Of a stretch of 32,960 bases of DNA, positions 820-19,694 are shown in pieces (the stretch's first letter is position 1; the number at the start of each line of letters is the position of its first letter). The translations under genes and the position numbers were made by a program. The notes below the pieces were generated by a model. The model made no database searches, was not told where the DNA came from, and saw only the letters and a list, made by a program, of their open reading frames with translations. The stretch is from a bacterium (lineage in GTDB: Bacteria > Patescibacteriota > Minisyncoccia > UBA6257 > GWB1-50-10), in the NCBI GenBank assembly GCA_027310235.1, contig DAIDBF010000049.1, positions 1 through 32,960 of the forward strand, in the 5' to 3' direction.

Positions 820-2778
820 ATGGCGGATGAAATCAAATCACATTTGAACGAACGACAGTGGAAGGCGGTCTCTACGACGGAGGGGCCGCTTCTCGTGATT
901 GCGGGTCCGGGATCGGGAAAGACGCGGGTTATCGAATATCGCGTGTTGCATCTTATCGAGAAAGGAGTTATTCCGGGACAGATTCTCCTTCTCACGTTTA
1001 CCAGAAAAGCGGCGCAGGAGATGCTTTCTCGTGCGGCCGCTCATGACGAGCGTGCAGGCCACGTACACGGGGGAACATTCCACTCATTCTCCTACAAACT
1101 CGTCGGCGAGTTCAGAAAACAGCTTGGATTTCCGGGCTCGCTTACCGTACTCGATGAAGGCGATGCGGAAGAAGCGCTCCAAAAACTCGTCGTACGTCTG
1201 GAACTCGGGGTCGGGGATACGGCATTTCCCAAAAAGCGTACGCTCCGCGCGATTCTGAGCGAGGCGACCAATAAAGACAAAACGATCTTCGAAATACTTG
1301 AACATTCTTACGAACATCTTCTGCCACATGCAAAAGCAATCGCACGGCTTGAGGAAGCGTACGCCGTCTACAAGCGAGAAGCAGGATATCTTGATTTCGA
1401 CGATCTTCTTCTCCTTGCAGTTAAATTGCTCCGCGATAAAGAGGTGGCGCGCGTCGTAGGTTCGCGCTACCGGTACGTCATGGTCGACGAGTATCAGGAT
1501 ACGAATCGTCTTCAAGGAGAAATCGCGTATCTTCTTGCGCATGCGCACGCGAATATCATGGTGGTGGGAGATGATGCACAGAGTATTTACGGATTCCGGG
1601 GCGCATTTCACGAGAATATCATGGAGTTTCCGAAATTGTTTCCCGGTTGCGTTACCGTGCTTCTCGAAGAGAACTACAGAAGTACGCAGAGGATTCTGAA
1701 TCTCGGCAACGCGATCTTGGAAACAATGCCGAAGAAGTTTAAAAAAACGCTTGTCGCGGCGCGCGGGGAAGCAGGCACCACGCCGCACATGGCGTACTTC
1801 GGGGATACTGAGGAAGAAGCGCATTGGATAAGAAGCCACATTCAATTCTTAGAGAAAAAAGGAATGCCGCTCTCGCGTCAGGCAGTGCTTTTCCGGTCCT
1901 CGTATATTTCAATCCCGCTTCAGGCGGAGCTTACCAAACACGGAATTCCCTATGAAGTATTCGGAGGATTGAAGTTCTATGAGATGGCGCACGTAAAAGA
2001 TGTGCTCGCGTATCTCAAAATTCTCGCGAACCCCCGCGATGAACTAAGCTGGAGCAGAGTGCTGCTTCTTATTCCCGGCGTGGGATTGAAGACCGCAGAT
2101 ACGATCTGGAATCATGTGAAGCGCGAGAATGGCGCGGCTTCGAATCTAGAATGGGGGAACTACCCCAACGGGGTGCGGGCGCTTGTTGAGACGCTGCATC
2201 TTGCCGCAGAGGAGTCGAAACCGATTCAGGATCGTTTTGATGTTCTTCTCTCGTACTACACGCCCGTACTGAAACAAAAATTCGATGACTGGCCCTCGCG
2301 CAAGAACGATCTCGAGGTACTCCGCGAGATTGCCGGATATTATAACGATCTTCACTCGTTCCTCGCCGACTGCGCGATCGAACCGCCGGAACGCCGACAA
2401 AAAAGAAAAGAACATGCGCTTACGCTCTCCACAATTCATTCGGCAAAGGGACTCGAGTGGGATTCGGTGTGCCTCTTGGGTGCGATCGATGGAGTACTCC
2501 CTTCGAAGATGGCATTTGATTCTGAGGAAGAGCTCGAAGAAGAACAACGCCTCCTCTATGTCGCGGTGACGCGCGCGAAAAACGACCTTGCGCTCTCGTT
2601 CCATTTGGAGGGTGGGCGCGGGGGATTCTCCTTACACAGATTATCCCGTTTTCTCGAGGAAGAAGAGGTATTTGCCGCGCTCGAACACAGGGATTATTCG
2701 GAGCGTCGCGCGCGGGAGCAGGCGGTGTGGAACGATGGGACTGACGGGGTTTATGAAGAAGATGAGGTGGAGTATTAA
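820..2778 (+). CDS. UvrD/PcrA/Rep-family ATP-dependent DNA helicase
   Basis: 652 aa with SF1 motifs AGPGSGKT (Walker A), MVDEYQDTN, ENYRST, TIHSAKGLEW and LLYVAVTRAK. A GAAAGG SD-like sequence precedes the ATG. Confidence 0.92.
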   Translation: MADEIKSHLNERQWKAVSTTEGPLLVIAGPGSGKTRVIEYRVLHLIEKGVIPGQILLLTFTRKAAQEMLSRAAAHDERAGHVHGGTFHSFSYKLVGEFRKQLGFPGSLTVLDEGDAEEALQKLVVRLELGVGDTAFPKKRTLRAILSEATNKDKTIFEILEHSYEHLLPHAKAIARLEEAYAVYKREAGYLDFDDLLLLAVKLLRDKEVARVVGSRYRYVMVDEYQDTNRLQGEIAYLLAHAHANIMVVGDDAQSIYGFRGAFHENIMEFPKLFPGCVTVLLEENYRSTQRILNLGNAILETMPKKFKKTLVAARGEAGTTPHMAYFGDTEEEAHWIRSHIQFLEKKGMPLSRQAVLFRSSYISIPLQAELTKHGIPYEVFGGLKFYEMAHVKDVLAYLKILANPRDELSWSRVLLLIPGVGLKTADTIWNHVKRENGAASNLEWGNYPNGVRALVETLHLAAEESKPIQDRFDVLLSYYTPVLKQKFDDWPSRKNDLEVLREIAGYYNDLHSFLADCAIEPPERRQKRKEHALTLSTIHSAKGLEWDSVCLLGAIDGVLPSKMAFDSEEELEEEQRLLYVAVTRAKNDLALSFHLEGGRGGFSLHRLSRFLEEEEVFAALEHRDYSERRAREQAVWNDGTDGVYEEDEVEY

Positions 2779-2835
2779 ATATCCGGCCGTAATGTTTTTG
2801 ATGAAAACGTGGTAAAACCCAAAACTTTTGCTGAG

Positions 2836-2864
2836 TTGACACGAAAATAAAGACACCTTATTCT
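2836..2864 (+). promoter_or_regulatory. Candidate sigma-70-type promoter for the glutaredoxin-like gene
   Basis: TTGACA (2836-2841), a 17-nt spacer, then TATTCT (2859-2864). The ATG at 2874 lies only 9 nt downstream. Confidence 0.45.
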
Positions 2865-2873
2865 AAGAAAACT

Positions 2874-3163: not shown

Positions 3164-3328
3164 CTCTCTGCGCCGCATTCCTCCGAACGAGGGTAGGACT
3201 TGGCCTAAGATAATAAAGTAGCCCCTCGTCGTGAACTCCTCGGGATGCTTACGAAGCGTGTTTATCTTCCTTGTTAGTGCGCTTCGTAAGCAAGCGCCCG
3301 AGCCGAGGAGGAATGCGGCGCAGGAGAG
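3164..3328. other. Long imperfect palindrome / candidate three-way-junction structured RNA
   Basis: The outer stem 3169-3184 (tgcgccgcattcctcc) pairs perfectly with 3307-3322 (ggaggaatgcggcgca). Inside it are acgaggg/ccctcgt, ctcggg/cccgag, and a perfect 12-bp hairpin gcttacgaagcg (3247-3258) / cgcttcgtaagc (3280-3291). Confidence 0.4.
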
Positions 3329-7613: not shown

Positions 7614-9251
7614 ATGCTTGCGGAAGATTTAAAAAACCTAATACAGGGGGATGTGATGTCCGATGAGAATACGCTCTCGGCATACAGCACCGACTACTCT
7701 ATCTTTAGGGTAACACCGAGCGTGGTAGTGTTCCCGAAGGATAAGGAAGACGTGGAGAAGCTCGTCCAATATGCGGCAGAGAAGAAAAAAAGCGGAGAGG
7801 CCATTTCCCTCACCGGCCGCTCGGCGGGAACGGACATGTCGGGCGGGCCCTTGAACGACTCCGTGATCGTCGAGTTCGCGAAGTATTTCAACCACATCCG
7901 CGAAATCGGGAGCGATTACGCCGTCGTCGAGCCGGGAGTGTACTTCCGTGATTTTGAAAAAGAACTTGATAAGAAAGGACTGCTCTATCCGTCTTATCCC
8001 GCATCCAAAGATCTGTGCGCGATGGGAGGAATTGTGAACAACAACTCGGGCGGCGAGAAGACCCTTGGGTATGGGAAGACGGAAGATTATGTGGAAGAAG
8101 TGACGGTCGTCCTCGCGGACGGAAAAGAACACGTTTTGAGGCCTCTCTCGGCGGACGAACTCTCTTCAAAACTCAAAGAGGAAAATTTCGAAGGCGACAT
8201 CTATCGGAAGCTTTTCAAACTTATTGAGGATAACTACGATGCAATTCAAAATGCGAAGCCGAAGGTTTCGAAAAATTCCGCGGGGTACTTCCTGTGGAAT
8301 GTGTGGGATAGAAAGACGTTCGACATTATAAAGCTCATCGTGGGTTCTCAAGGGACGCTCGGGCTTTTGACCGCCGCGAAACTCCGGCTTGTGAAGAAGA
8401 AGAAATACTCAGCGCTTGCGGTTATCTTTTCAAGAACCCTGGATCCCGTGCCAGATCTCGTGGATGATCTTCTCAAGTTCCACCCTGAAGGCATCGAGTC
8501 ATACGACGATAAGACACTCTCGCTCGCGATGAAGTTTCTCCCATCGCTCATAAAGCTTATGAAGGGAGGAGCGGTGAAATTGTTGTTCCAGTTTCTCCCG
8601 GAGCTTTTCGTAGTACTTCGCGGAGGGATGCCGCAGATGATATTGCTTGTGTCCTTCACCTCGGATGACAAGGAGGAACTTCATCGGGATATGGAAGAAG
8701 TACGTGCGACCGCGAAAAAGTATCCGGTGAGCGTGCGCATTATAAAAACCGAAGAAGGCGCACAAAAGTACTGGGTGATTCGTCGACAGAGTTTTGCGCT
8801 CTTGCACAGCCATGTGAAGGGAATGTATGCCGCGCCCTTCATCGATGATATTATTGTCGATCCGAAGTACATGCCGGAACTCCTGCCGCAAGTGGATATA
8901 ATTCTCGATAAGCACAAGGACAAGCTCATCTACACAATCGCGGGTCATCCCGGAAACGGTAACTTCCACATTATTCCGCTCGTGCGCCTGAATGACGAGG
9001 AAACGAGAAAAATAATTCCGCAGGTAACGGAGGAGGTATATAAACTTGTGTTCAAATACGGCGGCTCGATTACCGCGGAACACAACGACGGCCTCATCCG
9101 CACGCCGTATCTCGAGGAGATGTACGGCGAGAAGATCACCGAGCTTTTCGAAGGGGTGAAGAACATCTTCGATCCTATGGACATCTTCAATCCGCGGAAG
9201 AAAGTGGGAGGGACGACCGAGTATGCGGTGGAGCATATGCGAAGAAGTTGA
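7614..9251 (+). CDS. FAD-binding oxidoreductase (GlcD / D-lactate dehydrogenase-like, PCMH-type)
   Basis: The FAD_binding_4-type N-terminal domain is present (VVVFPKDKEDVEKLVQYA..., LTGRSAGTDMSGGPL, AMGGIVNNNSGGEKTLGYGKTEDYV). The C-terminus contains GGSITAEHNDGL. Confidence 0.85.
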   Translation: MLAEDLKNLIQGDVMSDENTLSAYSTDYSIFRVTPSVVVFPKDKEDVEKLVQYAAEKKKSGEAISLTGRSAGTDMSGGPLNDSVIVEFAKYFNHIREIGSDYAVVEPGVYFRDFEKELDKKGLLYPSYPASKDLCAMGGIVNNNSGGEKTLGYGKTEDYVEEVTVVLADGKEHVLRPLSADELSSKLKEENFEGDIYRKLFKLIEDNYDAIQNAKPKVSKNSAGYFLWNVWDRKTFDIIKLIVGSQGTLGLLTAAKLRLVKKKKYSALAVIFSRTLDPVPDLVDDLLKFHPEGIESYDDKTLSLAMKFLPSLIKLMKGGAVKLLFQFLPELFVVLRGGMPQMILLVSFTSDDKEELHRDMEEVRATAKKYPVSVRIIKTEEGAQKYWVIRRQSFALLHSHVKGMYAAPFIDDIIVDPKYMPELLPQVDIILDKHKDKLIYTIAGHPGNGNFHIIPLVRLNDEETRKIIPQVTEEVYKLVFKYGGSITAEHNDGLIRTPYLEEMYGEKITELFEGVKNIFDPMDIFNPRKKVGGTTEYAVEHMRRS

Positions 9252-9468
9252 ATGAACGACAGCTTCTTTCTCGAACGAGCATAGCGGAGCAAGGCCATGC
9301 CTTCGTGAATGAGAACGAAAGAAATAGGAATTGAAGGTGTTTGAGCCCCCACTTAGTTTCTAAACAGAGGGCGAGTTCCTTCAATTCCGTTCGTTTCTAA
9401 GGGCGAGTGAACAAGAAGACATCCGAGCGGAGCTCTCTGCAAGTGAGGGGAAGAAGCTGTCGTTCATT
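9251..9468. repeat. 218-nt long-range palindromic element
   Basis: Perfect 18-bp terminal inverted repeats aatgaacgacagcttctt (9251-9268) / aagaagctgtcgttcatt (9451-9468). An inner imperfect stem is built around ggaattgaagg / ccttcaattcc. The element starts on the last base of the upstream stop codon. Confidence 0.6.
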
Positions 9469-9575: not shown

Positions 9576-10886
9576 ATGTCTTATTTTGAGGTTATAAAAA
9601 GTGACTCAAGAACCAGTGCACGGGCGGGGGTTTTAAAGACGCCACACGGGGAGGTGAAAACACCCTCCTATGTGGTCGTGGGGACGGATGCGGCGGTGCG
9701 GTGCGTGCCGCCCGAAGAACTGTCGCGCACGAAAACGCAGCTTATTATCGCAAATACTTATCATCTTTGGAGAACATTGGAGGAACGATTGGAGACATTC
9801 GAAGGACTGCACGAACGGATGAGATGGAACGGACCCCTCATGACCGATAGCGGGGGATTTCAAGTTTTCAGTTTTGGCTTCGGGCGGGAGCACGGCATGG
9901 GGAAGATGGGAAGAGTATTCCCGGGAAGAAAACTATCTTCCGGAACCGGGCGTTCTTCGTCTCCAGCGGACGAAGCCGCCCTGCGCTCTCGCCCCGATAA
10001 GTCCGATAAAAATCGGACATCAAGCTCATCGGGGCTCCGAGAGCTTCCGTCGGATAGTTTTCTTCCCGGGAGCAAAGAAAATCTGGTGAGGGTAGTTGAT
10101 GACGGCGTTTATTTCATTATTGAAGGTGGAGAGCAATATTTGGATGCTGAACTCTCTATTCATATTCAGGAAAAACTCGGCGCGGATATTATTGTAGCGT
10201 TCGACGAGCCGACCTCGCCTTTGCATGATCATGCCTATACGAAAGAATCGCTTGCGCGGACGCATGCGTGGGCGCTCCGTTCACTCGCGGCGCGGACACG
10301 CAGAGATCAAATGATGTACGGCGTGGTGCAGGGAGGCGCTTTTGAGGACTTGAGGAAAGAGAGCGCGGACTTTATCGGGAAACAAGCATTCGAAGGGTTT
10401 GCGATCGGCGGATCGTACGGAGAGTCCATGGGCGCACCGCGCGAGCAGATGCTCTCGGTCTTGAAGTGGAGTGTCCCATATCTCCCGAGAGAAAAACCGC
10501 GGCATCTTTTGGGGATTGGGCGCATCGAGGACGTCTTCGATGCGGTCGAACTCGGCATGGACACGTTCGATTGCGTAATCCCGACAAGAGAGGCGCGCCA
10601 TGGATCAATATGGACGGCGCACGGCAGATTCGACGTGCGGAAAGGTGCGTTCGAGGGGAGTAAAGAATCGATCGAAGAAGGATGCGAGTGTATCGCATGC
10701 GGAGAGAAAAAAATCACGCGAGGAGAGCTCCGTGAGCTTTTTAAGTTGAAAAATCTGAAGGCGGGTCATCTTGCCACGGTGCATAATATCTATTTTTTCA
10801 ACAACTTACTCGAACAAATCAGGAAGTCGATTTTTGAAAGTACGTTTTCGGAGTTCAAGAAAAAATTCATTTTGAATATTTCTTAG
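9576..10886 (+). CDS. tgt: tRNA-guanine transglycosylase (queuine tRNA-ribosyltransferase) carrying an internal insertion
   Basis: TGT signatures TDSGGFQVFS, VAFDE, GVVQGG, LLGIG and the Zn site CECIAC...H are present. An insertion of roughly 55 aa, rich in Ser/Arg/Pro, follows the DSGGFQ motif. Confidence 0.9.
   Translation: MSYFEVIKSDSRTSARAGVLKTPHGEVKTPSYVVVGTDAAVRCVPPEELSRTKTQLIIANTYHLWRTLEERLETFEGLHERMRWNGPLMTDSGGFQVFSFGFGREHGMGKMGRVFPGRKLSSGTGRSSSPADEAALRSRPDKSDKNRTSSSSGLRELPSDSFLPGSKENLVRVVDDGVYFIIEGGEQYLDAELSIHIQEKLGADIIVAFDEPTSPLHDHAYTKESLARTHAWALRSLAARTRRDQMMYGVVQGGAFEDLRKESADFIGKQAFEGFAIGGSYGESMGAPREQMLSVLKWSVPYLPREKPRHLLGIGRIEDVFDAVELGMDTFDCVIPTREARHGSIWTAHGRFDVRKGAFEGSKESIEEGCECIACGEKKITRGELRELFKLKNLKAGHLATVHNIYFFNNLLEQIRKSIFESTFSEFKKKFILNIS
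9920..10070. repeat. Palindromic element inserted in frame inside tgt
   Basis: Perfect 18-bp inverted repeat cccgggaagaaaactatc (9920-9937) / gatagttttcttcccggg (10053-10070). Nested hairpins lie inside it (cttcgtc..gacgaag, gtccgat aaaa atcggac, ccccgat..atcgggg). Confidence 0.65.
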
Positions 10887-11937: not shown

Positions 11938-11965
11938 GAGGAGTAGTACTCTTCGATTTCTCGAA

Positions 11966-12165
11966 CCACTCCTTTTCCTCCCTCACGAGCAGAAACGTTC
12001 GCTCGCAGGAATCCATCTTCGTTCGTCCTCGCACTCGCGGCAATTATGCAAACTCGACCTTAGGGGACTCGGACAGTGCATAATTGCTCGTGTGCGTCGT
12101 CCTCACTCGGGGATTCCTTACCTCGCTCACGTATGCTCGTGAGGGAGGAAAAGGAGTGGTTCTCA
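11966..12165. repeat. 200-nt palindromic element with a perfect 28-bp basal stem
   Basis: gaaccactccttttcctccctcacgagc (11966-11993) is the exact reverse complement of 12138-12165. There is an inner perfect 11-bp stem gcaattatgca (12043-12053) / tgcataattgc (12080-12090). Confidence 0.65.
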
Positions 12166-12199
12166 AATCCACAGAGGTTCTATCTCGAATTTTCTCCAC

Positions 12200-12418
12200 G
12201 GGGAAGAACCTTTATCTCGGTGAAGCATCGTGGAGCGAAATAGATGTCTTCCCGAGCGAAGACGAAGGAACCAAAGAGGTTCTGCACTGTACGAATCCCG
12301 AATCTGCCGAAGGCAGAGAAGGTTGAGTTGCAGGACCCTTTAGGTTCCGAGGATGAGCGAGGAGGAGACATATTGAGCGGAACGTTTTGTTGGCCGAGAG
12401 GAAGGTTCTTCCCCGTGA
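12200..12418. repeat. 219-nt palindromic element
   Basis: cacggggaagaacc (12200-12213) pairs perfectly with ggttcttccccgtg (12405-12418), extended by tctcgg/ccgaga. An internal hairpin tctgcc-gaa-ggcaga lies near 12311-12325. Confidence 0.55.
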
Positions 12419-14700: not shown

Positions 14701-14752
14701 GAGGTTATCCCGGAGTGTACTAAATACGGGTCTCCCCGGAGGGGTTGACCCC

Positions 14753-14868
14753 GTAGTGAAAACTCGATAATCATTTACTCAATAAGAACACTTTATAAGA
14801 CACTGCCCCTGAGGGAGTTGTAAGCGAAACCAAAACCAAAAGGTCGCATAAAATCGAGTTTCTACTAC
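14753..14868 (+). repeat. Inverted-repeat element copy 1 (conserved 16-nt termini, unique interior)
   Basis: gtagtgaaaactcgat (14753-14768) ... atcgagtttctactac (14853-14868) form 14 Watson-Crick pairs, one G-U and one mismatch. The element is flanked by an identical 12-mer ggggttgacccc at 14741-14752 and 14869-14880. Confidence 0.6.
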
Positions 14869-14891
14869 GGGGTTGACCCCATTTCCGAATT

Positions 14892-17412: not shown

Positions 17413-17955
17413 ATGGGTTCATTTTTTTCAGGCATCGGTAATTTTTTCACCAGTTTCCCATGGGAGGGACTTTTCTCGGTTGCGCGAGTGGTGTTTATTG
17501 TCCTTGATATACTCCTCCTTGTCGCATTTTGTTTTGCGGCGTGGAAGGCATGGAAATTTCGCCCCGATCTCGAGATGAACTTCAGGGGCGGGATAAAAGA
17601 AAAGAAGGAAAAGAAAGCGCTTCCCGTCGATCGTGCGCGTGTAAAAAATCATTGGGAGAAAATCAAAAAGGATGCGGTAAGCGCGCCGCCGCACTCCATG
17701 AAACTCGGAGTGATCGCCGCAGATAATCTCACGGATTCGGTGTTACAGACCATAGGGCTTCCCGGTGAACACATGGCGGATCGTCTTCAAGAACTCGATC
17801 TTGAAGAGCTCGAAACGATCGAGGATCTTTGGAGGGCGCATAAGATACGAAATCAGCTTGTGCATACGCCCGGGTTCGAAATCTCAAAAAAGGAAGGAGA
17901 AGAAATGCTCGACGCGTATGAGGCGTTTTTAAAAGAATTGGGAGCGCTTCAATAA
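17413..17955 (+). CDS. Small membrane-anchored protein with a HEPN-like (DUF4145-like) C-terminal domain
   Basis: An N-terminal TM segment (VARVVFIVLDILLLVAFCFAAW) is followed by a basic linker. The C-terminus ...ADRLQELDLEELETIEDLWRAHKIRNQLVHTPG contains an R-x4-H motif (17848-17865) in a helical context like HEPN/DUF4145. The assignment is tentative. Confidence 0.6.
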   Translation: MGSFFSGIGNFFTSFPWEGLFSVARVVFIVLDILLLVAFCFAAWKAWKFRPDLEMNFRGGIKEKKEKKALPVDRARVKNHWEKIKKDAVSAPPHSMKLGVIAADNLTDSVLQTIGLPGEHMADRLQELDLEELETIEDLWRAHKIRNQLVHTPGFEISKKEGEEMLDAYEAFLKELGALQ

Positions 17956-18080
17956 TTTTTTAATTTACAATTTGAAATTTTTATTCAATTTTAAATGATT
18001 TAAGTTTAAATTTTTAAAACATTATAACATTAGGATTTGATTAAAAATTAAAAATTTTGAATTAAAAATTATCGTCTATT
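17956..18080. promoter_or_regulatory. Extreme AT-rich spacer (about 125 nt) with repeated ttga(a)ttaaaaatta units
   Basis: Only a handful of G/C occur in 125 nt, against a background that looks close to balanced in GC by eye. A near-direct repeat occurs at 18036-18050 and 18056-18071. The spacer lies immediately upstream of the ATPase gene. Confidence 0.5.
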
Positions 18081-19526
18081 ATGCCTCGCGAATCAAAACT
18101 GCAAATTATCAAATATGCTCCTCCGCCGCCGGAGCTGCCGATCTACGGGCAAGTTGACCCGAAGGACGTGTCGTTTATAGGGAGAACCAATTACGTCGCC
18201 GCGCTTGAGCGGAAGAATTTCATCTTTGGCATCAAACGCGTCGACAGAAGAAGGCACGCGTACATCATCGGGAAAAGCGGCGTCGGAAAATCGAAGCTCT
18301 TGGAACTTTTTACGCGCCAGGATATCGCCTATGGCCACGGACTTTGCCTTATCGATCCGCACGGCGAAACGATCGACGACATCCTTCCGTTTATCCCAAA
18401 GGAACGCATTGATGATGTGTGCATCATCGATCCTTCCGACATTAATTACCCCGTATCCTTCAACCCGCTTGCAAACATCGATCCCTCTTTCAAACATCAG
18501 CTTACCCAAGGTCTTATTGAAGTCATGGAAAAGCAGTTCGGTGCGAACTGGACGCCGCGGCTCGAGCACGTATTCCGCTTTACCTGTCTCGCGCTTCTCG
18601 ATTATCCGCATGCCACCATGCGCGGCATGATCTCGATGTTGACCGATAGAAACTACCGCCAAAAAGTAGTGGAATATATCGAGGACGACATGGTAAAACG
18701 CTTCTGGGCGATCGAGTTTGCCGACTGGTCGGAAAAGTTCGACACGGAGGCCATCATCCCGCTTGTAAACAAGCTCGGACAGTTCCTTTCGGATCCGATG
18801 CTTCGGAACATCTTCGGGCAGAAAGAAAACAAGGTAAAACTCGAAGAGTTGATGCAGGAGAAGAAGATCATTCTCATCAATCTTTCGAAGGGGAAGATCG
18901 GAGAAGAAAATTCAAGTTTCTTCGGTTCGATGTTCATCACGAAAATTAAGCAAGCCGGCATGGCGCGCGCCGCGCTTCCAACCTCCGAACGGCACGACTA
19001 CTACGTGTATGTGGACGAGTTCCAGAATCTCGTAACCGATACGTTTGAAAACCTTTTGTCCGAGGCGCGCAAGTACGGATTGTGTCTTACAGTCGCGCAT
19101 CAGTATGTGGGGCAACTCTTGCCGAAGGTAGAAGCCGCCGTTCTGGGAAATACCGGAACGATTATCATTTTCCGCGTAGGCGGCGAAGATGCCGTGAAAC
19201 TGAAACCGGAGATGGCGCCCATCTTCGATATTAAGGATATGATCAACCTCGGTATGGGTCAGATTTATATCAAGATGACGATTGATGGCGAGACGTACGA
19301 TCCATTTTCCGCAGAGACGCTGAAAGTGCTCCCGCCGACGCATCCCTCATATAAGGAAGAAATCGTCGCGCGATCGCGCGAGAAGTATTCAATCTCCGCG
19401 GATGCGGCAAAGCGGCTCATCGCGGAAGAGGAAGAAGGAATTTTCCGAAGTGCCCAGGAAAAGGCGGCGATCACTGGCAAACCGCAGGCGGCGGCCGGAA
19501 ACGATACTCCAGAACCACTCATATAG
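18081..19526 (+). CDS. Soluble VirD4/TraD/TraG (type IV coupling protein)-like P-loop ATPase, paralogue 1
   Basis: It has Walker A IIGKSGVGKS, Walker B YYVYVDEFQN, then LLSEARKYGLCLTVAHQYVGQL, matching the T4CP-type pattern DE..L....L.E.RK.G....HQ...QL. There is no N-terminal TM segment. Confidence 0.8.
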   Translation: MPRESKLQIIKYAPPPPELPIYGQVDPKDVSFIGRTNYVAALERKNFIFGIKRVDRRRHAYIIGKSGVGKSKLLELFTRQDIAYGHGLCLIDPHGETIDDILPFIPKERIDDVCIIDPSDINYPVSFNPLANIDPSFKHQLTQGLIEVMEKQFGANWTPRLEHVFRFTCLALLDYPHATMRGMISMLTDRNYRQKVVEYIEDDMVKRFWAIEFADWSEKFDTEAIIPLVNKLGQFLSDPMLRNIFGQKENKVKLEELMQEKKIILINLSKGKIGEENSSFFGSMFITKIKQAGMARAALPTSERHDYYVYVDEFQNLVTDTFENLLSEARKYGLCLTVAHQYVGQLLPKVEAAVLGNTGTIIIFRVGGEDAVKLKPEMAPIFDIKDMINLGMGQIYIKMTIDGETYDPFSAETLKVLPPTHPSYKEEIVARSREKYSISADAAKRLIAEEEEGIFRSAQEKAAITGKPQAAAGNDTPEPLI

Positions 19527-19542
19527 ATTTCTCCTAAACCCA

Positions 19543-19662
19543 GTAGTGAAAACTCGATTGTGTATTGCCCCTCTTTTCCTCGATTTATTTCATATCTCCA
19601 CAAAGGCGTAAAATAATTAAGAAGATTCAAGCATCAAAAACAAATTATCGAGTTTCTACTAC
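19543..19662 (+). repeat. Inverted-repeat element copy 2
   Basis: The 16-nt termini are identical to copy 1 (19543-19558 and 19647-19662). The stem is extended by ccca/tggg. The 88-nt interior is unrelated to that of copy 1. Confidence 0.6.
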
Positions 19663-19694
19663 TGGGAAAGGTCGCTAGTTTAAAAGTAAATTAT

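Follow-up and report, generated by a model that had tools for sequence, protein, structure and literature searches.

The tgt gene and its palindromic element

The window, by which we mean the whole 32,960-nt stretch of DNA analysed here (contig DAIDBF010000049.1 of assembly GCA_027310235.1, Patescibacteriota, forward strand), carries tgt, the gene for queuine/preQ1 tRNA-ribosyltransferase, and inside this gene lies a 153-nt palindromic element that is the subject of this report. A preliminary description of the window had noted at this place a perfect 18-bp inverted repeat enclosing nested hairpins, and had proposed that a palindromic mobile or structured element landed in tgt while keeping the frame open. 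The two arms of the repeat, 9920-9937 (cccgggaagaaaactatc) and 10053-10070 (gatagttttcttcccggg), were found to be fully complementary. A repeat search extended them to 27 nt each (9919-9945 and 10045-10071; 89% complementary, with three mismatches), and pairing extended outward reached the full 153 nt. The features are as follows.

9576-10886, + strand: tgt (queuine/preQ1 tRNA-ribosyltransferase), a single open reading frame (ORF) of 436 amino acids, host gene of the element
9919-10071, + strand: whole palindromic element, 153 nt or 51 codons (codon 115 position 2 to codon 166 position 1), in the orientation called 'A'
9919-9945, + strand: 5' arm of the outer stem (helices 1 and 2; inverted repeat I3), which acts as terminal inverted repeat and differs in sequence between copies
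10045-10071, + strand: 3' arm of the outer stem, from the inverted repeat and alignment A4
9948-9981, + strand: helix 3 hairpin, GGGCG-TT-CTTCGTC-[TCCAGCG]-GACGAAG-C-CGCCC, with a nearly invariant apical loop
9982-10043, + strand: second branch of the Y-shaped fold, made of the CTCTC/GAGAG closing stem and an inner hairpin
9986-9990 paired with 10039-10043, + strand, in the second branch: helix 4, invariant CTCTC with GAGAG, nearly invariant
9991-10035, + strand, inside CTCTC/GAGAG: variable, covarying hairpin (helices 5 and 6) with a conserved ACCAAGCT-like internal loop

The nested hairpins are all present in the predicted fold. RNA folding of 9915-10075 gave -93.7 kcal/mol, compared to -51.6 +/- 4.3 kcal/mol for 200 dinucleotide shuffles (z = -9.77), none of which was as stable. 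The single strand folds as a Y, in which an outer stem of ~20 bp, variable from copy to copy yet always paired, closes a conserved core of two hairpins. These hairpins are joined by near-invariant unpaired motifs, namely GGAACC, the loop CTCCAGCGG, GCCGCCCTGCG-CTCTC, ACCAAGCT and CTCCGAGAGCTTCC; the loop CTCCAGCGG, which belongs to helix 3, is kept in nearly all copies. A covariance model, R1, was built from eight tgt copies, and on the window it matched 9922-10068 with 150.9 bits (E = 8e-30). Other copies are 139-159 nt long. The sequence TTCCCGGGA, itself palindromic, stands on both sides of the window element; the equivalent flanks in another locus, L007, are inverted and not direct.

The insert in the Tgt protein

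Tgt had been described as recognisable from end to end, and we observed the same. Pfam finds TGT as the sole domain (E = 6e-107), with the match split into two stretches flanking the insert, and a search of the PDB matched Tgt structures (E = 4e-73). The catalytic Asp91 and the zinc ligands C370/C372/C375/H403 are invariant among the 30 best Tgt homologues (alignment A1). Between the window and the syntenic locus L001, tgt has an amino-acid identity of 0.87 and a third-position identity of 0.57. The gene evolves under purifying selection, and the enzyme is very probably functional despite the insert.

The size of the insert, given earlier as about 55 residues, needs correction. When aligned in two blocks to solved Tgt structures, residues 100 to 171 of the window protein correspond to residues 110 to 113 of the Thermotoga maritima enzyme, which leaves ~68 extra residues. 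Of these, 51 codons (115-166) are the palindrome, and the rest (GFGREHGxGK... and ...KENL) is a loop common to Patescibacteria Tgt proteins with or without the element. The stretch 9919-10071 encodes FPGRKLSSGTGRSSSPADEAALRSRPDKSDKNRTSSSSGLRELPSDSFLPG, from which a peptide such as GTGRSSSPADEAALR would be expected. The loop motif GK..IFP(G/E)E is widespread among element-free Tgt proteins, and because of this it is probably ancestral host sequence adjoining the insertion point. We also noted that residues 101-110, GFGREHGMGK (window 9876-9905), just upstream of the element, are invariant or nearly so in the 30 closest Patescibacteria Tgt proteins, element present or not. This segment has no counterpart in the T. 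maritima or Zymomonas mobilis enzymes and its confidence in the AlphaFold2 model is low; it looks like a clade-specific extension beside the catalytic strand, probably functional.

AlphaFold2, given the 30-sequence alignment as input, returned a confident TGT barrel with a predicted local distance difference test score (pLDDT) >= 90 at 235 residues. Foldseek placed the T. maritima and Z. mobilis enzymes at the top of its matches to this model (TMt 0.90-0.94; 0.94 to 2ash). Residues 100-169 of the model have pLDDT values of 20-42 and nearly no secondary structure, apart from two short low-confidence helices before residue 115. The insert peptide is therefore predicted to be disordered on an otherwise canonical enzyme. 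In the preliminary description a surface loop away from the active site had been suggested for checking; the model supports a disordered loop, but not its remoteness from the active site, since the loop directly follows the strand that bears the catalytic Asp91. From the general architecture of the fold, it would lie on the catalytic face of the TIM barrel.

Filled, flipped and empty alleles of tgt

The closest Tgt proteins come from metagenome-assembled genomes (MAGs) of Patescibacteria (Minisyncoccia and similar), and the insert is patchy among them. Among the 30 best Tgt proteins it is present in P0002-4, 7-10, 17-22 and 24-27, and absent from P0005/6, 11-16, 23 and 28-30. In this alignment the insert peptide has two 'flavours'. 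The DNA of eight loci (alignments A2 and A3) showed that the two flavours come from a single homologous element (~140-150 nt), read from one strand or the other; L003, L005 and L008 have its reverse complement at the same position of tgt. In the pair L008 and L009, the tgt flanks are 83% identical at the nucleotide level and the element is flipped. Every major subclade of the Tgt alignment contains forward, reverse and empty alleles. The presence of both orientations at one tgt site is most simply explained by inversion between the element's own arms.

The 'empty' allele of P0011 is the filled allele of P0008 minus one 114-nt gap; the right arm is still complete, and 11 nt of the left one remain. 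Because these remnants are retained, P0011 is an internal deletion and not a virgin site. A side observation was made on the same pair. P0008 (L037) and P0011 (L038) are 92-100% identical over ~100 nt on each side of the element site (alignment positions ~300-560) and 60-85% identical elsewhere, which looks like a recent local recombination tract centred on the element. The empty allele of P0005 (L006) was also considered as a deletion remnant; its alignment is ambiguous and we make no claim for it.

In 12 tgt loci, the mean identity of the element (0.69) equals the nucleotide identity of the host gene (0.68), compared to 0.445 at host third positions, and the identities of element and host correlate (r = 0.64). 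Because element identity tracks that of the host and exceeds that of host third positions, the tgt copies have probably for the most part descended with the gene, under a constraint at the nucleotide level. Two pairs are outliers: the elements of L005 and L009 are 82% identical in hosts that are 64% identical, and those of L004 and L005 are 60% identical in hosts that are 77% identical. These pairs suggest an occasional exchange of the element.

A dispersed family

We derived a degenerate DNA pattern from the conserved core and used it in one scan each of genome and metagenome collections, the matches being confirmed by R1. The genome scan (one genome per species, 185,579 species) gave 27 loci, among which 25 are full-length R1 matches with 79-155 bits. 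The scan of metagenome contigs gave 19 further R1-confirmed loci. In total there are ~45 further full-length matches, some of which are the same contig present twice. The genome matches are nearly all in Patescibacteria MAGs (labelled Niyogi-, Colwell-, Lipton-, Jorgensenbacteria or 'Saccharibacteria'), and two MAGs with the element are labelled Omnitrophota. The family is dispersed in Patescibacteria and is also found in Omnitrophota-labelled MAGs. Several MAGs hold two or three copies, on different contigs. Within the window and eight syntenic loci of 14-21 kb (194 kb in all), R1 found the tgt copy alone. Pattern hits in Chloroflexi and Streptomyces genomes and a single hit among viral contigs were not confirmed by the covariance model, and blastn against phage and plasmid collections gave no match to the element.

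Besides tgt, where many genomes have it, the element lies in frame inside several unrelated genes. With Pfam domains of the host on both sides, they were found in serine hydroxymethyltransferase (SHMT; glyA), a class-V aminotransferase (cysteine desulfurase-like), MnmA (in two genomes, at the same site), FolD and RecG, in the last case between the two helicase domains. A copy in ParB is in the N-terminal tail with all Pfam domains downstream of it, and uses a third frame. Over 20 further sites are intergenic; among them are sites upstream of rpsP and of rplC and others next to genes of the EF-G/EF-Tu type (elongation factors). Within genes, every copy continues the reading frame of the host protein and is free of stop codons. 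Between genes, the length of several copies is not divisible by 3, and in several the frame that genes use is interrupted by stops; neither occurs in any genic copy. The peptide GRSSAPAAEAxLRSR recurs in six host proteins in the same frame, and the other orientation gives GSSRS..ERRAASAAGAEERP. The checks recommended earlier, a presence/absence comparison of orthologues and a search for the element elsewhere, thus gave a patchy insert and the same element in other genes and in intergenic DNA, and the proposal of a palindromic element inserted in frame into tgt is supported by these results.

The SHMT copy allowed us to define what had been inserted. The element is in only one of the 120 best SHMT homologues, and the nearest empty orthologue reads IFSK followed directly by LLISDLIDKAVFPG (filled/empty pair P0121 and P0148). 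As this empty orthologue is without both arms, the inserted piece is the whole palindrome, including the outer stem. We had considered that the outer stem might be copied from the host at insertion, and rejected this because the SHMT palindrome with both its arms is extra relative to the empty orthologue.

Two further observations concern the insertion sites. Three loci have two family copies in opposite orientation 24-70 nt apart (L014, 2913-3053 and 3081-3234; L040, 307-459 and 483-623; L052, 12443-12588 and 12658-12803), and L014 and L040 are Omnitrophota-type contigs. Such pairs may come either from nested or tandem insertion or from a preference for targets next to an existing copy. The SHMT insert loop lies between ...RGxxIF and ...IDKAVFPG, and odd inserts are found there in many Patescibacteria SHMTs. 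At the position of the element in the SHMT of L019, other quasi-symmetric low-complexity inserts (e.g. KSEIRNPKSETNSKRKIQNSK) occur in P0139, P0155, P0168, P0169, P0180 and P0204, which suggests that other palindromic families may have colonised the same permissive loop.

Covariation and conservation of the element

We aligned 35 copies (33 distinct) to the model (alignment A4) and examined the pairing. Standard pairs occupy 91.9% of cells, compared to 64% in column shuffles and 38-48% when the partners are slid by 1-3 columns. Double-sided changes are found in 49 of the 55 pairs, and none of 500 shuffles reached the observed values. All 18 pairs of helix 1 have double-sided changes, with 85% of cells paired; in helix 3, 12 of 13 pairs covary and 96.5% of cells are paired; helices 5 and 6 have double-sided changes in 15 of 15 pairs. 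The changes are almost always from one Watson-Crick pair to another, and among 1,756 cells there are 32 G:T, compared to 64 A:C and 60 T:C. Tolerance of G:U pairs is typical of functional RNA helices. As neither strand shows such tolerance, we take the pattern as evidence that complementarity is maintained in DNA, not in RNA.

Conservation of the core hardly depends on codon position: the identities at the three positions are 0.86/0.85/0.80 for copies inside genes and 0.76/0.74/0.78 for those between genes, compared to 0.445 at host third positions. Unpaired core columns are more conserved (0.86) than paired ones (0.71). The constraint is on nucleotides, not on amino acids. A condition set earlier against a mobile element, namely an insert conserved as peptide and not as DNA palindrome across Tgt orthologues, is the opposite of what we found: the DNA palindrome is conserved and its two orientations encode unrelated peptides. 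The outer stem (18-27 bp) is conserved within subfamilies, for example GCCCAGCACCTTACTGTCTGACGG in L013, L018, L021, L044, L047, L052 and L055.

Search for a known class of element

The whole window gave no Rfam match at the gathering threshold, and 9850-10150 gave none at E <= 10; a tRNA/tmRNA scan found nothing. A self-splicing intron, an intein and a known structured RNA were rejected as candidates on the lack of an Rfam match and on the Pfam result, which is TGT only. No split half-elements were matched by R1 in the window, the syntenic loci or the genome and metagenome matches, and no Y1 transposase gene lies near the copies examined. The only recurrent neighbours of intergenic copies are EF-G/EF-Tu-type GTPase genes. 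A full-text literature search found no description that links Patescibacteria or the candidate phyla radiation (CPR) with palindromic or miniature inverted-repeat transposable element (MITE)-like insertions in coding genes, in agreement with the earlier remark that the phenomenon had not been described for this kind of genome.

Origin of the insert and alternative explanations

The data favour, with a probability of about 0.78, the interpretation that 9919-10071 is a copy of a non-autonomous family of selfish palindromes, similar to MITEs and to Rickettsia palindromic elements (RPEs), that is translated as a tolerated disordered loop. The insertion would have taken place in an ancestor of the clade, at a variable loop on the surface of Tgt. 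This insertion could survive because the length is a multiple of 3 and the frames used are free of stops; for the same reason the element would be transcribed and translated together with tgt, as a disordered Ser/Arg/Pro/Ala-rich loop that the enzyme tolerates. Afterwards it would mostly have descended with the gene. Several inversions, for which recombination or template switching between the two arms of the element is the simplest mechanism, and repeated losses by internal deletion would have occurred on the way. Mobility is indicated indirectly by copies in unrelated genes and intergenic sites, several per genome and in two phyla. The hairpin or cruciform and the core motifs may be what a recombinase or transposase recognises, and templated repair within the palindrome possibly helps its maintenance. 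That a DNA hairpin or cruciform is what is recognised and maintained is indicated by the Watson-Crick-only covariation in 49/55 pairs, by the hypervariable ends around a conserved core and by the inversion at a fixed site. By analogy, structure-specific recognition of single-stranded DNA would explain both the Watson-Crick-only covariation and the conserved loop motifs.

Several observations weigh against this interpretation. The copy number per genome looks low, as the tgt copy is the only one in the window and the eight syntenic loci. All-against-all clustering of the ORFs within 3.5 kb of 26 intergenic copies gave no recurrent gene for a transposase or recombinase, and 41 oriented copies revealed no target-site duplication or shared target motif. 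The two orientations at one tgt site could also come from repeated site-specific insertion instead of inversion. Moreover, over deep divergence the conservation of the core greatly exceeds that of synonymous sites in the host, and this is true even of the vertically inherited tgt copies; a purely parasitic, immobile insert would not stay so conserved, and continuing selection or homogenisation is needed.

Core conservation is also what gives some weight to an unlikely alternative, that the element is a structured nucleic-acid signal beneficial to the host, for instance by binding a protein as DNA or RNA, by pausing ribosomes, by affecting mRNA stability or by tagging a set of genes for common regulation. 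This conservation holds across tgt genes whose proteins are ~60% identical, and the unpaired motifs hardly vary. Of the seven in-frame hosts, five have linked functions (tgt, mnmA and cysteine desulfurase through tRNA wobble-base modification and sulphur supply; glyA and folD through one-carbon units), and intergenic copies lie beside highly expressed translation genes (fusA/tuf-like, rpsP, rplC). However, the element stands in tgt in either orientation although its core is asymmetric, and it has been lost many times while the gene was kept. G:U tolerance is missing on either strand, as is any Rfam match at E <= 10, and the list of hosts is a small, ascertainment-biased sample of reduced genomes rich in housekeeping genes. 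We hold as equally improbable a related pair of ideas: a conserved Y-shaped module under nucleotide purifying selection, preferentially kept in or beside the genes of one circuit (wobble modification, sulphur and one-carbon supply, translation), or a 'homing' palindrome. In the former, a DNA- or RNA-binding factor could recognise the element as a common site within the coding sequences; in the latter, it could be spread between genomes by transformation and homologous recombination of conserved gene flanks, at which the near-identical flanks of P0008 and P0011 hint.

The remaining explanations concern the gene product and the assembly. It is very improbable that the element is an intervening sequence removed after transcription, with the outer stem cleaved by an RNase III-like or splicing endonuclease and the exons re-ligated to give Tgt without the insert. 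In favour of this, the outer stem forms >20 bp of nearly perfect helix whichever way the element points, and insertions in CPR rRNA genes are known. Excision would, on the other hand, make it unnecessary for all genic copies to keep the frame and be stop-free, which several intergenic ones do not; group I and II introns are much larger than the element, which matches no Rfam intron model, and to our knowledge no mRNA splicing of this kind exists in bacteria. Close to refuted is the possibility of a lineage-specific segment selected for its amino-acid sequence (e.g. an RS-rich tRNA-binding arm), with the palindrome incidental. The recurrence of GRSSAPAAEAxLRSR in one frame of six proteins and the slightly higher conservation of genic codon positions 1 and 2 (0.86/0.85) than of position 3 (0.80) would fit it; but the reverse orientation gives an unrelated peptide at the same Tgt site, the ParB copy uses a third frame, intergenic copies keep the same nucleotides, the pLDDT is 20-42 and the stems covary as DNA. 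Palindromes can misassemble in short-read metagenomes, and an assembly artefact had been named beforehand as something that would undo the proposal. We regard an artefact or chimera as refuted, the same insert being present at the same codon in independent NCBI, JGI, ENA and Logan assemblies, including contigs of 285-465 kb, with the frame kept in all.

Other palindromes and features of the window

The preliminary description had likened the tgt element to intergenic palindromes at 9251-9468 and 11966-12418. The likeness holds for style; neither blastn nor the covariance model finds shared sequence, and these are different families. Two palindromes lie between the M23 peptidase gene and secD, one of 200 nt at 11963-12162 with perfect 29-bp arms (z = -10.9) and one of 221 nt at 12197-12417 (z = -10.7). 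The orthologous spacer in L001 is 17 nt long and has neither, and a 76%-identical copy of the 12197-12417 palindrome is present in L001 at 9768-9933, upstream of tgt and reversed. They are mobile palindrome families of their own and have no sequence relationship with the tgt element. The spacer between the FAD-oxidase gene and tgt has a 218-nt imperfect palindrome at 9251-9468 (z = -5.2), and in L001 it holds a different one, of the 12197-12417 family. The folds of 9251-9468 and 12197-12417 consist of a regular succession of short paired blocks with mismatches of 2-3 nt between them, from a perfect outer stem to a perfect central hairpin.

Among the window's other palindromes, only 14741-14880 and 19539-19666, both intergenic, share ends with each other; these are 20-nt ends, CCC(G)TAGTGAAAACTCGAT ... 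ATCGAGTTTCTACTAC(G)GGG, with differing interiors, as in a classic MITE. At 14741-14880 and at a 156-nt palindrome, 3168-3323, the spacers are 116-133 nt longer than in L001. Along ~20 kb of synteny, the window has at least five palindromic insertions that a ~80%-identical relative lacks. A further inverted repeat, within the FAD-oxidase gene (8524-8689), was dropped, its fold not being significant (z = -1.4). Two other features were noted. A gene for an ArsR/HTH_20-type regulator, which in L001 and L006 lies between the UvrD-like helicase and glutaredoxin genes, is missing in the window (2747-2869, compared to 3035-3485 in L001). At 17954-18071, between ORFs ending at 17955 and starting at 18081, there is an AT-rich region of ~120 nt with overlapping imperfect inverted repeats.

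Comparison with known systems

The closest parallel is with the RPEs, which are ~150 bp long and comprise ten families, with 44 insertions in Rickettsia conorii; nearly half of these are in ORFs, as translational fusions encoding a conserved peptide (RPE-1 to RPE-10: Ogata et al. 2000 Science 290:347; Ogata et al. 2002 Genome Res 12:808; summarised in PMC10969869). This analogy had been drawn in advance, and it is strengthened by what we observed: a palindrome of comparable size with a stable fold, copies both intergenic and genic, and a frame that is kept with a recurring peptide. Both are palindromes of ~100-150 bp that lie between genes and in frame in unrelated housekeeping genes of small, reduced genomes and encode a conserved peptide. 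For both, no associated transposase is known, and RPE inserts are regarded as compatible with how the host protein folds and works. Unlike RPEs, the element occurs in MAGs of Patescibacteria/CPR and in Omnitrophota-labelled ones, and the likeness is one of features, not an assignment to RPEs by descent. It also differs in folding as a Y whose core is conserved and whose outer stem covaries and is hypervariable, in having both orientations at one gene site, and in its 1-3 copies per MAG (from partial MAG data) compared to 44 in R. conorii.

Bacterial MITEs with intragenic copies (ERIC/IRU, pneumococcal BOX, Coxiella burnetii QMITE1/2 and the Anabaena MITEs) are likewise small and non-autonomous, have terminal inverted repeats forming a long hairpin, and are multi-copy with occasional in-frame ORF fusions (PMC10969869, PMC5896051). 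The Patescibacteria element has the terminal inverted repeats of a MITE, but no target-site duplication was found at 41 oriented copies and no parental insertion sequence near 26 intergenic ones. In contrast to a typical transposase-driven MITE, its ends are the least conserved part and its interior the most.

Repetitive extragenic palindromes (REPs) are 20-40 bp long with a GTAG or CGTC head, lie outside genes and are mobilised by REP-associated tyrosine transposases (RAYTs; PMC3733652). We rejected an assignment to REPs or bacterial interspersed mosaic elements (BIMEs), as our element is 139-159 bp long, has variable ends without a conserved tetranucleotide head and is often genic. A dependence on a DNA hairpin would resemble that of REP/BIME and IS200/IS605-type elements, as a mechanistic analogy only (PMC3733652). 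In the part of the published account drawn on here, mitochondrial genes of Nematomorpha have perfect inverted repeats of up to 284 bp whose arms encode protein sequence (PMC6649704). Those coding palindromes, as far as that part describes them, are also long inverted repeats kept palindromic and in frame in essential genes; the present element differs from what is described there in being a dispersed repeat family that adds a disordered loop.

The inserts also have practical consequences. They inflate and distort protein alignments of CPR marker genes and can be mistaken for lineage-specific domains, and the filled, empty and flipped alleles are useful population markers. In-frame selfish palindromes in housekeeping genes have so far been seen as peculiar to Rickettsia, apart from scattered examples in other organisms. 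What we describe is an RPE-like phenomenon in another lineage, a new family of a known phenomenon that is set apart by its lineage, its conserved core and hypervariable ends, its lack of target-site duplication and its orientation polymorphism. Its occurrence in Patescibacteria, which also have tiny reduced genomes, suggests that such insertions are a recurrent outcome of genome reduction and a general way in which protein loops are lengthened.

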